Assembly: GCA_964499425.1 (NCBI GenBank)
Contig: CAZCLD010000002.1
Coordinates: 1 to 51,751, forward strand
Length of the DNA stretch: 51,751 nucleotides
Direction: 5' to 3'
Source: an uncultured Candidatus Peribacteria bacterium
Lineage (GTDB): Bacteria > Patescibacteriota > Gracilibacteria > UBA1369 > LOWO2-01-FULL-3
Shown here: piece by piece, positions 46,593-51,696 of the stretch
Layout of the letters: every line of letters starts with the position of its first letter
How positions within the stretch are numbered: the stretch's first letter is position 1
Made by a program: the position numbers and the translations under genes
The notes under the pieces: generated by a model
Told to the model about the DNA's origin: nothing
Seen by the model: only the letters and a program-made list of their open reading frames with translations
Databases searched by the model: none

Positions 46593-47089
46593 GCTGGTTC
46601 TTCCAACTGATTTTTTGCTATCAAACCTAAAAGCTGCATTAGCATTTTTATGTGTTTTGCTCGAGCAGTTTTCCCATGCAAAACACAGTCTTCATGCAGA
46701 GATCTGAGCTTCTCTAAAATCACCGTAAGTGCTTCTACTTCACCACTGTCTATTTTTCTTCCGGATTTATAGGTTTCCAGAATGAAGAATCCCAACTGCA
46801 CAAAAATAGAATTTCTTACTGGATCCTGTAGATCAACCACTTTTACGGGTACACAGTCCTGATCTACAATTCTCACTCTTCTGTGAACCCCATCAGCATC
46901 TGGCGAAAAAGCCGTCAAACTGGCAACCTTAGCTGCCGCATCACTGCCTTCCCTCCTTAAGGATGTCAGATCTCTATCTATTTGAACCTGATCTTCAGGT
47001 TCTGGGAGTGGAGGACCTATGATCCTGGGTATCCTGATAGCTCCCTCTCCATGGTCTTCTCCTGGTTTTTTCTTGATTCCAATCTTCAT
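46577..47089 (-). CDS. Hypothetical 170-aa protein
   Basis: Divergent from the 1137-aa gene, and its 3' end overlaps pyrD by 16 nt. No motif recognised. Confidence 0.5.
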   Translation of the reverse strand: MKIGIKKKPGEDHGEGAIRIPRIIGPPLPEPEDQVQIDRDLTSLRREGSDAAAKVASLTAFSPDADGVHRRVRIVDQDCVPVKVVDLQDPVRNSIFVQLGFFILETYKSGRKIDSGEVEALTVILEKLRSLHEDCVLHGKTARAKHIKMLMQLLGLIAKNQLEEPAQTEE

Positions 47090-47114
47090 GAGTTTGATTA
47101 TACCCCTTTTAATC

Positions 47115-47143
47115 TTGACGTCAAGGCTTTTTGGTGGTATAGT
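47115..47143 (+). promoter_or_regulatory. Promoter of the 1137-aa gene (TTGACG-17-TGgTATAGT)
   Basis: -35 at 47115-47120 and an extended -10 at 47135-47143. This supports ATG 47165 rather than the tracked start at 46982. Confidence 0.6.
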
Positions 47144-47164
47144 CTGCAGCTATTAATTTTTCTC

Positions 47165-50100
47165 ATGCCTGACTTTGAAGGTGAAAATAGGCGTACCTCC
47201 CCTAGAACTGGAGAGATAACTGAAGAAGCCTTATTTGGTGCCTTGAGAAGGACTATTGAATCCGGGCGTTCTGTTGATGAGTTGGAGTATACAGAGGGAG
47301 ATGAAATGAGAACTCTTTTGAAGGAAAGGCTATTTTTAGCAGCAGGTATTCCTCTTACTGATTTGGAAGAAGATGAGGTTGATGAGGAAGGTCTTATTGA
47401 ACCTGAAGAGGCCGATGAAGAGCCACCTGAAGAAGATGATATTCCCCAGTATAAAGGCAAATTCCATATTCCAAGCTCATATGGGCCTGACTCTCCTGAG
47501 GTAAAATCAATTAAAAAGGCTCATAAGAAGGGGCAGCCCGTAGCCTTATATGAATTCATGCAGGGGATGGTCGATTATGGTGCTGGTAAAATCCCCTCTC
47601 CAAGGATTTGGATTGAGCATAAAAGTGGCAGGAGGCATTACTATAATGGCCAAAATGGTATTAGTAGTGATCTTGACGACCCTGTTGTTGCCATTGAATT
47701 TATTAATGGAGGTCCAGGACTTAGTCCAGAGGATACAATCATCAACAGACATGGTGGTGGCGATCACACACTTGGTGAATACGGTAAGGGCATGACTCTT
47801 GCCCTAGTCTACCTTAAGACACTGGGGCTAGACGTAACGATTAGCTCTCACTTTAATGGCCACTCTTGGTCAGGCAGCCCGTTGCTCAAGCGTACTGAGT
47901 CTGGCGTAGCTAGGACCCTTGTTTTAGATGGGGAATGGGGTGAAAAGGATGCGACGGATCATACTTGCTTTAGGGTAGAGTACCCTCCCAGAAAACTCTT
48001 GGACGCTGTTACTCATGCGGGTGATTTATTTCTATATGCTAATCCTAAATATCCTGAGGCGTGTCTAGTAGATCCGGACAACGAGGCTCAAGAGAAGGTG
48101 GAAGATCCCATTCCAGTATCTAGTGGAAGTGTTCGCTGCGTTGATGGAGTTATCGAAAATGGAGAAGATGGTTCTCATAAATACATCTATATTGATGGAC
48201 TCAGAATCCCCCTTAAACACAGGGAATCTACCATTCTCCCATGGTCCGTGAAGGATTTATCTGATGCTAGATATTACTTTAGTGTTAAGCGTTCTCATGA
48301 CTCGCTATCATACTCTGGTGGATACTTATCCTTACCCCTATTGTGTGCAGTTCAACAACTTGAAAATAAAGAATTGCTGAGAAGATTAGTTGTCTGTGCA
48401 GTTTCTAACCCCGACCATGAATTCGTGGAATTCTCCGTTCCTGATTACCATTTAGATGAATGTGAGGATTTCAATGAGACCACCTCTTCCCACATCAAGG
48501 AAATATGGGCAGAAGAATATGGGGAGAATACTTTAATTGCATCAAGCCAAAAGGAACTTGATATGTATAAGAAGTTTGGCAAGGAAAAGAGGGATATTCT
48601 TTTATTACCTTCGGGTCTCTATAAATTCCTTGAGAGAGCTGGTATTTCTACAGCTCTAAATGAATCAAGCGTTCAAGATATAGAGAAATTAGGCGATGTT
48701 AGTAGGTTATATGTCCCCTCGGCGAGCCGCCCGGATAAATTTGAGAAACTAATGGACTATATTGCGGGTGTTGATGGAGATGTTGAGCTGAAAGAGATTG
48801 ATGGTGAAAAATGTATGGTTTGTCGAGTCCCGAGAGTGGTAAAAACTGTTGAAGAGTTTAATGGGCAAACAGAAAATAATCATGGGGTCGTTTTGCGTAC
48901 GGCTGCGATAATTGCAGCTTCGGAGAATTTGGATCATAAAATCTTCTCAATTGGTGATGGGCATGCTCATGAGACGAAAATGGATATTTCATCTCCGAAG
49001 CCTGATTGGTATTCAACCAAGATTGAAGTTCATGTTAAGAGTCTGGAGGCAAATCCAAAGTACAAAAGCTACGACGGGGGCACTACGTATATAATTCTAT
49101 CAGGTGAAGGATTGGAGGATTTCTTCGAGGGAGATCCTGCTGCTTATATGAAAGCTAAGCTTGAAGAAAGAGATAGAAGACGTGGGAAAATGCCGAAAAA
49201 GAAGAAGACGCAAAAGAAGGCTAAGTCTAAAGAGGCGCTCGATGATTCCTCAAATGATATTACAATCGGACAAATTGATATCACGAATAGAGAGGAGGAA
49301 AATGGTGGTGAGCCTGACCCTAGTACTAAATACCCCATTGGGAACTATCAATTTGGCACCGGTTCATTGTTTAGATATGACAGTGAAACTGAAAAATGTC
49401 ATTGGCAAAATCAATATGAATGGAAGCCATCTTCTGTAGCTGCTGTTAAACCTGTGCATTTTGACTCATGTCATGTTGAGACTGGTTTTAATTCTGGTTA
49501 TCAAGTTTTGCCTATACTAATCAGGAATGAAATAGTCGGTTATCAGGCTAGTGATGATAGTGATCTTACTTTCTTTAGGGATAAGAGAACCGGTTTGTAT
49601 GCAATGTCTGGCTCTGCAGAAAGGGTAGAGCTCTACACTAAGAAAGTTCCCAAAAGCAAATATGAAAACACCCCCCCATTGGAGCATGAGAGTGACAATC
49701 CATTAGAAGACAGCGCTTATTTGCTTCTCCCCTATTGGCAGGAGTTTATTAGAGAGATGCAAGAGATGGAAGGGTTATCAGTAGAGATGAAAGTAGCCTA
49801 TGCACAGAATATGTGGAACCACTATTTTGTATATGATGATAGTAAAGCTATAGGTGACCAGGTCCATGCTCGCGCTGAAGAGGCTCATCTCTCTGAAGAG
49901 GAGTTGAAATGCCGCATAGCCGCTAGGATTCTTAATCGTTCTAGAGGGATATGTAACTTATCTGCTACAGGCTTTGTGCTTTTATTAAAGGCTATAGGTG
50001 TGCCTTCACGGCTTTGCGCGGGTTACTGGAAACAGGGGGCCAGCTCAGGTCGTCATGCATGGGTTGAGTACTGGAATGGAGAAGAATGGTTGACTCATGA

Positions 50101-50578
50101 GAGTCAAGTTGGAGTGAGATCGAGAGATCAGTTCATAGGCAAAAGTGTTGAAGATGTCCTTCGGGCTTTCGATGATAGAATCCGAGAATTGAGTCGCAGC
50201 GTAGAGGCAAATCAGGCTGAGGTAACCGATTTAAGTGCAAGCAAGGTAGCACTACTTGCAGAATTAGAAGCAAGTGAAGCTGCTAGAGAGTCTATACGTA
50301 TGGAGGTAAGGAGAGTATCTGAGCAGAGAGACACTATGGAGCAGGCCCTGAGAGCTGAACTTGCCGAACTTACTGCTAGTGGGAAAGACCGTGAAGGTTT
50401 ACTCAAGCGACAACTTTCAGATGCAGGAGCTGATGTATTAGAACGTGATTTACTAATTGCTCAGGCAAGACGAGCGCTTGAGGCTCTGAGGGACGAAAAT
50501 CCCCTGATGGTAACCCGCGGTGGTTATCAGGAGCGTCTCACAAGAGAACTCGGTTTCCTAGATCAACAAGAGTCTTAA
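47165..50578 (+). CDS. 1137-aa multidomain protein: acidic N-terminus, possible GHKL-type ATPase fold, transglutaminase-like cysteine protease core, C-terminal coiled coil
   Basis: Transglutaminase-core pattern C-NLSATGFVLLLKAIGVPSRLCAGYW...GRHAWVEYWNGEEWLTHE (Cys codon 49952, His codon 50054, Glu codon 50099). GHKL-like segments are YEFMQGMVDYGA, EFINGGPGLSPED and LGEYGKGMTLAL (47543-47810). A/E/L/R heptad-like sequence runs from about 50180 to the stop. Confidence 0.75.
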   Translation: MPDFEGENRRTSPRTGEITEEALFGALRRTIESGRSVDELEYTEGDEMRTLLKERLFLAAGIPLTDLEEDEVDEEGLIEPEEADEEPPEEDDIPQYKGKFHIPSSYGPDSPEVKSIKKAHKKGQPVALYEFMQGMVDYGAGKIPSPRIWIEHKSGRRHYYNGQNGISSDLDDPVVAIEFINGGPGLSPEDTIINRHGGGDHTLGEYGKGMTLALVYLKTLGLDVTISSHFNGHSWSGSPLLKRTESGVARTLVLDGEWGEKDATDHTCFRVEYPPRKLLDAVTHAGDLFLYANPKYPEACLVDPDNEAQEKVEDPIPVSSGSVRCVDGVIENGEDGSHKYIYIDGLRIPLKHRESTILPWSVKDLSDARYYFSVKRSHDSLSYSGGYLSLPLLCAVQQLENKELLRRLVVCAVSNPDHEFVEFSVPDYHLDECEDFNETTSSHIKEIWAEEYGENTLIASSQKELDMYKKFGKEKRDILLLPSGLYKFLERAGISTALNESSVQDIEKLGDVSRLYVPSASRPDKFEKLMDYIAGVDGDVELKEIDGEKCMVCRVPRVVKTVEEFNGQTENNHGVVLRTAAIIAASENLDHKIFSIGDGHAHETKMDISSPKPDWYSTKIEVHVKSLEANPKYKSYDGGTTYIILSGEGLEDFFEGDPAAYMKAKLEERDRRRGKMPKKKKTQKKAKSKEALDDSSNDITIGQIDITNREEENGGEPDPSTKYPIGNYQFGTGSLFRYDSETEKCHWQNQYEWKPSSVAAVKPVHFDSCHVETGFNSGYQVLPILIRNEIVGYQASDDSDLTFFRDKRTGLYAMSGSAERVELYTKKVPKSKYENTPPLEHESDNPLEDSAYLLLPYWQEFIREMQEMEGLSVEMKVAYAQNMWNHYFVYDDSKAIGDQVHARAEEAHLSEEELKCRIAARILNRSRGICNLSATGFVLLLKAIGVPSRLCAGYWKQGASSGRHAWVEYWNGEEWLTHESQVGVRSRDQFIGKSVEDVLRAFDDRIRELSRSVEANQAEVTDLSASKVALLAELEASEAARESIRMEVRRVSEQRDTMEQALRAELAELTASGKDREGLLKRQLSDAGADVLERDLLIAQARRALEALRDENPLMVTRGGYQERLTRELGFLDQQES

Positions 50579-51696
50579 CCCTTTGCAGGCGGATTTTTTT
50601 TGATGAAATCAATAACTTCCTGGCTTTCATCAAATATATTTATCATTTCGCCGTACTTGTGTCCGTCTGATAACTGTTTTAGGAGTGGCATTACGTTGTA
50701 TTTTTCAGTCCAGTATTTCTTGTCGAAGAACACCATTGGGCTCAAATATCCGTAGGTCTCGTAGTGATTTTGAGCTGCGTCTGCAAAAATCTCCTGGATT
50801 GTCCCTGCGCTTCCAGGTGCGTAGACTATCCCATGAAGTGCGGTAGCAAGTAATACGTCTTCTCTCAGAGAATTTGAGAAATACTTTGCGATAGCGGTGG
50901 CAAATAGATTAGATGGTTCATGTCCATAGAACCATGTTGGGATTGCCAAATTGGCTGATCCTTCTGGGTATTTTTCCACTACTTTTTTGGCCTGTATTAT
51001 ATATTCAGCTTTCTTAAAATCTGTCTCTACTTTCAGAGTTTCTAAGGCATCTTTCAACTCCTCGTCAGTCTTTCCACCAAAGTATGCACCAAAATTAGCG
51101 GCCTCCATGATCCCGGGGCCCCCTCCTGACATAACATAAAACCCTTCCTCAGTCAGAGCCTTTGTCATTTTGGCTACTTTTTCAAAAACCGGATCATCCC
51201 TTTTGGCTCCATGTCCTCCCATAACACCGACACATTTTTTCTCGGTCATTCCGGAATCGTCGAAGCCAACCTCCTGTCTTAGTGCGTCATCGATAGCGTG
51301 ATCGTGTATTCTCTGGGAAAGTGCTTCATTAATGTCTATGGAATACCTAAATGACTCAAAATGTTCATATATGTGTAAGTCTTTGCTTTCGTCTTGTTCT
51401 GGAGTAAAACCCTCCAAAAGTTCCTGCCAGGTATAAAGACTTTTGCGATATGGATTGTAAGGCAGGCCTATTGCCTTTGGAAATATTGTAGCGCCCTTTT
51501 CTCTCAATTTGACTTCAAGCTCGATAGGCATCTCGCATCCCAGGAATGTCGTATTGGCGATTTTGACGTTCTCCCAATCCAGCTCGATTTCTCCCAGATT
51601 GATATCCTGAATGGTCAAATTAAGCAGCTCGTTTCCTTGATCTACAAGCCCTTTTACTGATTCTATCTCTCTGATGTATTTTTTTGGTGCGGGCAT
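50575..51696 (-). CDS. LOG-family nucleotide 5'-monophosphate nucleosidase (TIGR00730/PpnN-like) with ~140-aa N-terminal extension
   Basis: GGGPGIMEAAN and PGSAGTIQE (the PGGxGTxxE-type motif) in the C-terminal two thirds. The N-terminal region is unassigned. Confidence 0.75.
   Translation of the reverse strand: MPAPKKYIREIESVKGLVDQGNELLNLTIQDINLGEIELDWENVKIANTTFLGCEMPIELEVKLREKGATIFPKAIGLPYNPYRKSLYTWQELLEGFTPEQDESKDLHIYEHFESFRYSIDINEALSQRIHDHAIDDALRQEVGFDDSGMTEKKCVGVMGGHGAKRDDPVFEKVAKMTKALTEEGFYVMSGGGPGIMEAANFGAYFGGKTDEELKDALETLKVETDFKKAEYIIQAKKVVEKYPEGSANLAIPTWFYGHEPSNLFATAIAKYFSNSLREDVLLATALHGIVYAPGSAGTIQEIFADAAQNHYETYGYLSPMVFFDKKYWTEKYNVMPLLKQLSDGHKYGEMINIFDESQEVIDFIKKNPPAKG

Follow-up and report, generated by a model that had tools for sequence, protein, structure and literature searches.

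ATPases of the GHKL and GHL groups are DNA clamps, chaperones, and kinases, and enzymes with a transglutaminase fold are usually kept in check by calcium, by cleavage of a zymogen, or by their location; we know of no earlier case in which a Bergerat-fold clamp directly controls a thiol protease or transamidase. Here we analyze a 51,751-nt stretch of DNA (the window; positions 1 to 51,751 of the forward strand of contig CAZCLD010000002.1, assembly GCA_964499425.1) from an uncultured Candidatus Peribacteria bacterium, a candidate-phyla-radiation organism with a genome of 1.36 Mb. The window carries a gene whose product, P0002, very probably combines a GHL-type clamp module and a TgpA-like transglutaminase module in one protein of 1137 amino acids (aa). 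The coding sequence occupies 47165-50578 on the forward strand, stop codon included, within an open frame of 46982-50578, and its start at ATG 47165 is supported by P0003, the closest homologue at 43-44% identity, whose alignment begins at about residue 13. A preliminary description of the window, made by a model from the letters alone, had assigned the 1137-aa protein to 47115-50578. The reading frame is real and every peptide motif quoted for it is present in the translation, but the start was misplaced: the frame from 47115 holds stops, and what lies at this position is not the gene start but a -35 hexamer, part of a promoter-like site.

The N-terminal module of P0002 resembles that of the GHL clamp ATPases (MutL, Hsp90/TRAP1/GRP94, GyrB/ParE, Topo VI-B, MORC, and SMCHD1). 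P0002 and these ATPases share the general-base Glu, the GxxGxG end of the lid, a Thr resembling that of motif IV, and a basic residue conserved in the second domain, and the strap-and-lid N-terminal dimer predicted for P0002, with a separate C-terminal element that would dimerise, is like theirs. The P0002 family differs from these ATPases at the N-box Asn, where it carries Gly or Asn after an invariant Gln, and at the G1 Asp, which it replaces by Asn; its link to the superfamily is hardly visible to sequence profiles. Moreover, P0002 has a second Bergerat-like domain and a transglutaminase domain downstream, which are found in none of those families. The module begins with an N-terminal strap (residues 95-112) and a Bergerat-fold GHKL nucleotide-binding domain that extends to about residue 305 (47447-48079, on the forward strand like all parts of P0002), followed by a transducer-like second domain (residues ~314-470; 48104-48574), which was assigned from fold alignments and conservation.

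The fold of this module was predicted for residues 95-470 from an alignment of 67 relatives, and the model reaches a predicted local distance difference test (pLDDT) score of 95.3 and a predicted template-modelling (pTM) score of 0.92. A Foldseek search with the model gives 87 matches at E <= 0.001, and the top 50 structural matches are all GHKL-plus-transducer ATPases and nothing else. The fold alignments to GRP94, ParE, TRAP1, MutL, and Topo VI-B extend to model residues 312-376, and Hsp90-family proteins are among the best matches, while the fold scores favour no single GHL family. The predicted fold of the N-module is thus the Bergerat alpha/beta sandwich, in agreement with the GHKL-like segment that the preliminary description had placed near the N-terminus. 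The three Bergerat-like boxes picked there, YEFMQGMVDYGA (residues 129-140), VAIEFINGGPGLSPED (residues 175-190), and LGEYGKGMTLAL (residues 203-214), turn out to be the N, G1, and G2 boxes; they occur in the expected order and sit in the expected secondary-structure elements, and the segment YIYIDGLRIPL that was said to follow them corresponds to residues 340-350.

Sequence profiles are nearly blind to this relationship. HATPase_c is reached by 8 of the 67 relatives, the best at E 0.0023, and HATPase_c_3 by one relative, so the profile check proposed in the preliminary description finds GHKL in the family at these levels but not on P0002 itself. Sequence profiles alone would almost have left the protein without a significant GHKL match, the outcome that was to reduce it to an ordinary transglutaminase-like protein. 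When the family profile was searched against the PDB, the sole GHKL chain reached was VanS, at a non-significant E of 0.43. The catalytic and ATP-binding domains of VanS-type histidine kinases carry an Asn at the G1 position as P0002 does, and show that a Bergerat pocket can function with Asn for Asp (PMC10017428), but they belong to a single-domain kinase module without a transducer. Two other PDB matches of the family profile were rejected as spurious, namely RsgI and the top-scoring TAL effector (E 0.0069, summed over 11 weak repeats). The latter arises because the ATP-lid segment (residues 185-203; window 47717-47773), with the pattern G-L-S-P-E-D-x-[VI]-I-x-x-H-G-G-G, resembles the TAL-effector repeat L-T-P-E-Q-V-V-A-I-A-S-H-D-G-G-K-Q-A-L.

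The C-terminal module (residues 696-987; 49250-50125) consists of a beta-rich N-terminal part and a papain-like core. Pfam Transglut_core matches residues 918-976 at E 2.2e-10, with 41.2 bits against a cut-off of 23. The catalytic residues lie where the preliminary description had seen a transglutaminase pattern: RGICNLSATGF holds Cys930, GRHAWVEYW holds His964, and WLTHES holds Glu979. Of the 37 relatives that could be aligned, 34 retain Cys930 and 35 retain His964; the loss of Cys and His in homologues, which had been named as an observation that would speak against the assignment, is confined to a few members. Position 979 is Glu in 32/37 and Asp in 3/37, and Glu replaces the usual Asp. A phmmer search of P0002 against the PDB finds only TgpA (E 0.065), an inner-membrane protein of Pseudomonas aeruginosa and the closest solved relative of the module. 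Because the whole fold of the periplasmic domain of TgpA (PDB 6g49/6g4h) is matched, the C-terminal module is a complete TgpA-like transglutaminase/cysteine-protease domain and not the core alone. P0002 differs from TgpA and other Transglut_core proteins in the prevailing Glu of the triad and in the fusion to an ATPase module, and from TgpA also in having neither a polytopic membrane domain nor an export signal. As the ATPase module is in the same chain, the transglutaminase module should act in the cytoplasm. Three relatives, P0008 (L001:8001-10991), P0017, and P0018, are without the catalytic Cys, and two of them are also without His and Glu, while their GHKL motifs are kept; judged from their residues, these appear to be forms of the architecture with a pseudo-transglutaminase.

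Between the two modules lies a middle domain (residues 503-675; 48671-49189), which is probably a second Bergerat-like alpha/beta sandwich that has lost all nucleotide-binding motifs. The surrounding part of the chain (470-720) is recognisable by sequence in 26 relatives, and a search of residues 495-690 with ESM Atlas features gives no usable match. The idea that this domain is a duplicate of the first GHKL domain was dropped, with an hhalign probability of 2.7% and no sequence support. It is followed by a Lys/Arg-rich linker of low model confidence (residues 676-695; 49190-49249; pLDDT < 50 at model residues 209-219). Downstream of the transglutaminase module, the preliminary description had noticed a coiled-coil tail, and the periodicity test is consistent with this: the A/E/L/R-rich residues 990-1137 (50132-50575) show a 3.5-residue hydrophobic periodicity that is equalled by 0 of 2000 shuffles, and there is a weak match to the APG6_N coiled coil. 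In 23/67 relatives the tail region holds a hydrophobic helix in place of the heptad coiled coil. The hydrophobic-helix scan finds no such helix anywhere in P0002, and no signal peptide or N-terminal membrane helix in any of the 67 relatives.

We then considered whether the N-module is predicted to dimerise. Two copies of residues 95-470 modelled together with ATP and Mg give an interaction score from predicted aligned errors (ipSAE) of 0.68 (runs 0.67, 0.68, and 0.68), while the best of three controls gives 0.00; the contacts agree to at least 96%, and the pLDDT of the partner is at least 83. In the calibration of the tool, this mark is reached by 20 of 30 proteins solved as same-chain pairs and by 1 of 23 solved as single chains, counts that hold only roughly here because our own alignment was used and ligands were included. 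The predicted interface is formed by the well-conserved strap 95-112, the lid with the G2 box (187-211), and residues 230-231, 244-251, and 377-385, the last of these beside Arg376; in the model this is the canonical strap-and-lid dimer of a closed GHL clamp.

The conservation of the nucleotide pocket was counted over the 67 relatives, which are 20-49% identical to P0002. The general-base Glu130 and Gln133 are invariant (67/67 each). In the G2 box, the GxxGxG motif at the end of the ATP lid, Gly204 is kept in 64/67, Gly207 in 65/67, and Gly209 in 67/67. Thr267, at the expected motif IV position, is kept in 65/67, and in the R-S-x-D-S motif of the second domain (R376 to S380), Arg376 is kept in 66/67 and S380 in 64/67. 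The N box of the family has the motif Y-E-[LF]-x-Q-[GN]-x-x-D-Y, in which Gly and Asn alternate throughout the family at the position four residues after the Glu (Glu+4), always after the invariant Gln133. The G1 box of P0002 is N181-G-G183-P-G185, with its glycines kept in 50/67 and 59/67, and the register of this box is backed by the end of a strand in the model and by the VanS alignment, in which Asn aligns to Asn. The family provides a natural experiment on the pocket of GHKL proteins: Asn stands where an 'indispensable' Asp is expected, and Gly alternates with Asn at the Mg position beside an invariant Gln.

From the folds, the conservation, and the predicted homodimer, we infer how P0002 might work. 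P0002 would be a cytoplasmic multidomain enzyme built of a strap, a Bergerat fold, a transducer, a motif-less Bergerat-like domain, a basic flexible linker, a Cys-His-Glu module, and a coiled-coil tail. The tail would keep two chains together as a constitutive C-terminal dimer. Nucleotide binding would shut the lid, and the N-terminal modules would then dimerise transiently by strap exchange, as in other GHL clamps (MutL, Hsp90, MORC). Closure of the clamp would bring the pair of thiol active sites into position on a protein substrate, or unmask them there, and the substrate would then be cross-linked, deamidated, or cut. We give an even chance to this proposal, in which a dimeric clamp gated by nucleotide controls a thiol enzyme that modifies proteins. 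Direct control of a thiol protease or transamidase by a Bergerat clamp, made possible by a conserved covalent fusion of the two, would to our knowledge be without precedent. A more far-reaching version, which we put forward as a tentative possibility, is that the family represents a new class of GHL machine, in which the clamp, driven by nucleotide and exchanging its straps, gates a thiol enzyme for protein modification instead of acting on DNA or folding clients, with a pseudo-Bergerat domain and a rewired pocket that may select a nucleotide other than ATP, such as GTP.

Several observations weigh against a nucleotide-gated clamp. At Glu+4, the Mg-binding position, P0002 has Gly134, and Gly is present in 43/67 and Asn in 24/67 relatives, so that the canonical ExxxN pattern is absent from most of the family. 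The adenine-binding Asp of the G1 box is Asn in 56/67 and Asp in only 1/67, which departs from DxGxG. The same Asp-to-Asn change in yeast Hsp90, D79N, is reportedly the classical nucleotide-binding-dead mutant, and canonical ATP binding by the N-module may accordingly be weak or altered, as far as the residues indicate. The Pfam and NCBIfam scans of P0002 itself give no GHKL match. The dimer prediction may recall solved GHKL dimers, in which case it would reflect likeness and not binding, and the ligands are unscored in it. The link between the ATPase module and the transglutaminase active site is one that we infer, and the three relatives without the catalytic Cys imply that catalysis is dispensable for some members.

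Some of these points lend weight to the alternative that the GHKL module is a degenerate pseudo-ATPase that serves as a nucleotide-independent dimerisation element or scaffold, with the transglutaminase domain as the sole catalytic part. The substitutions at the N and G1 boxes, the failure of Pfam HATPase_c to detect P0002, and the probable presence in the same chain of another Bergerat-like domain that lost all its motifs fit this explanation, as does VanS, which has the same G1 Asn and binds ATP weakly (PMC10017428). The Asn at the G1 position is nevertheless rare yet functional in histidine kinases; in ThkA, there is an Asn-adenine hydrogen bond at this position, and one G1-Asn histidine kinase prefers GTP (PMC10017428). 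Furthermore, the near-invariance of Glu130, the three G2 glycines, Thr267, and Arg376 at such low overall identity is hard to explain without a ligand, 24/67 members keep the N-box Asn, and the invariant Gln133 beside the lost Asn could take over metal binding. Because the rest of the pocket is so strongly conserved, nucleotide is probably still bound in it, perhaps with altered affinity or specificity. The preliminary description was right that the N-box Asn of P0002 is replaced by Gly, though about a third of the relatives keep it, but a 'degenerate or inactive' fold, as suggested there, is not the likelier reading, and we consider the pseudo-ATPase explanation rather unlikely.

We next examined the distribution of the family. 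HMMER, run exhaustively over 1.84 billion cluster representatives, gives 124 matches to P0002, 82 of them at E <= 1e-10. In domain-wise phmmer searches, the N-module (95-470) and the C-terminal module (720-990) co-occur in ~60 proteins of ~930-1500 aa, counted among the retrieved 50%-identity cluster representatives, and these proteins apparently all come from candidate-phyla-radiation bacteria or unassigned metagenome contigs. The named homologue loci are from metagenome-assembled genomes of Candidatus Peregrinibacteria and Patescibacteria. Sampled genomes were searched with a profile of the N-module; the resulting counts are samples, and absence means not found in the genomes searched. Of 301 genomes sampled from the phylum, 3 have a clear full-length relative (the host genome, G033, and G001); the 9 other genomes searched from the same family have none, and one weak match comes from 200 genomes of the class. 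No stand-alone N-modules of 162-734 aa were found with this profile. Some members are longer than P0002: P0026 and P0031 (1515 and 1595 aa) have ~490 extra N-terminal residues, and a giant member of 2204 aa from a marine metagenome-assembled genome (L012:422-7036, forward strand) has an N-terminal extension of ~900 residues without a Pfam match. The N-terminal extensions of the long variants (1383-2204 aa) contain no Pfam domain.

No source gives a name to the proteins of this family, and full-text searches of the literature for a fusion of GHKL, HATPase, MORC, or Bergerat domains with a transglutaminase found no description, in line with the preliminary statement that the fusion is not a described family. 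The transglutaminase fusions discussed in a comparative-genomics paper are with helicase and HEPN domains, not with GHKL (PMC3710099). The domains of P0002 are of known kinds; the new part is their combination, in which a GHL ATPase has an effector without precedent and a pocket that is unusual. Assigning folds to a large and nameless gene of a very small, symbiont-type genome is also useful for annotation.

As the gene is sporadic and stands alone, its biological role is probably accessory. One possible role would be that of a single-protein conflict system, used in anti-phage defence or as a weapon of mobile elements, in which the GHL clamp would sense foreign DNA or protein like the MORC, paraMORC, and Tiamat ATPases and the thiol enzyme would be the effector. 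The presence of the gene in so few of the sampled genomes, and in none of the 9 others searched from the same family, is consistent with this, and an all-against-all BLAST across seven homologue loci and the window shows that only the GHKL-transglutaminase gene itself is shared. Some distant members adjoin mobile or defence-type genes, either an integrase, a NUDIX gene, and a TrwB-like ATPase, or Bro-N, a helicase, an N6_N4 methyltransferase, and ResIII, or lie near HicAB, and the basic linker could bind nucleic acid. The nearest structural neighbours of the N-module point in the same direction. In the ESM Atlas, its best neighbours are uncharacterised 'MPN635_N' (PF25856) proteins of phages and bacteria, with a TM score of 0.68 over 302 residues; 78-79% of the members of the neighbour clusters, which are from phages and Bacillota, carry PF25856, and one cluster carries HATPase_c_3 in 16%. 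In BFVD, the best match of the N-module has an E of 3.5e-12 and is followed by phage RIIA proteins. Unlike P0002, the PF25856 proteins (~300-530 aa) and RIIA (600-800 aa) have no transglutaminase domain that we could see, and no sequence-level link of the N-module to these phage proteins was found.

Other results argue against a conflict system. PADLOC-DB 2.0 (2023) contains no match at E <= 0.01 for P0002, two neighbours, and three relatives, bar one chance-level LeoBC match, and PHROGs gives one marginal, unnamed match for P0002 (E 0.0041) and none for the three relatives. No relatives were found in phage records or viral contigs, and the composition at the gene shows no anomaly. The close homologues lie among housekeeping genes, as Pfam searches of their neighbours show a Trp operon, leucyl-tRNA synthetase, PBP2, an M23 peptidase, and M16 peptidases, and the gene for P0002 itself lies near pyrD. 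We therefore regard a conflict system as unlikely; if true, it would add a new single-gene defence architecture. Cell-wall genes occur near four homologues, namely a PBP2 transpeptidase (L011:11151-13391), a class A PBP (PBP1; L016:21680-23744), VanW (L018:8362-10266), and an M23 peptidase with SLH (L009:944-3433); these neighbours are not conserved in position and may be present by chance. A membrane-proximal structural or maintenance enzyme, which would cross-link or trim cytoskeletal or envelope-assembly proteins at the cytoplasmic face of the membrane with its ATPase acting on a client in the manner of Hsp90, would suit these genes, the Hsp90-family fold matches, the inner-membrane location of TgpA, and the hydrophobic helix after the transglutaminase domain of 23/67 relatives, which would serve as a tail anchor, but it is very improbable, since P0002 is without such a helix, the cell-wall genes are common anyway, and the sporadic distribution speaks against a core function. 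The conflict-system and membrane-proximal explanations both address the biological role, and either could hold together with the clamp mechanism.

Upstream of the clamp module, residues 1-94 form a leader (47165-47446) with a short helical-looking segment and then a very acidic linker. The leader aligns only with P0003 and the fragment P0112, and on this alignment it appears specific to the lineage of P0002 and its closest relatives. The acidic linker noted in the preliminary description corresponds to residues 65-95, with a net charge of -18.

In the window, the GHKL-transglutaminase gene sits between pyrD and a SLOG/LOG-like gene. The latter (50575-51696, minus strand) encodes a 373-aa protein with matches to LDcluster4 (E 3.6e-9) and Lysine_decarbox (E 1e-3), and it converges on the GHKL-transglutaminase gene with a 4-nt overlap. 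A 56%-identical orthologue is present in a genome of the same family (G365) that shows no N-module profile match, indicating that the two genes are not linked. The synteny with the same-family genomes is too eroded to reveal an insertion site. On the other side, a divergent 170-aa open reading frame (P0127; 46577-47089, minus strand) with its own promoter-like site converges on pyrD and shares 16 nt with its end. Pfam has no family for P0127, a search of 100 genomes of the class finds no relative, and by these searches it is an orphan and a predicted gene only. The preliminary description had called it a divergent orphan partner of the large gene and had proposed a neighbourhood comparison for it and the LOG gene. 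The reading frame exists and is divergent, but a partner role is unsupported, as neither it nor the LOG gene adjoins any homologue.

The strong promoter that was proposed for the GHKL-transglutaminase gene corresponds to a promoter-like site, TTGACG-17-TATAGT with a TG extension (47115-47143, forward strand), which scores 10/12 matches in a consensus scan; the site is there, but it is a pattern match only, and the count of promoter-like sites in the region is not above that of shuffles. The two divergent promoter-like sites have in common the palindrome CTTGACGTCAAG (47114-47125), inside which their -35 hexamers stand back to back. The -10 element of the minus-strand site (TATAAT) reaches as far as 47097, and the ATG of the 170-aa reading frame follows only 8 nt later, at 47089, so that a transcript from this site would be leaderless or nearly so.

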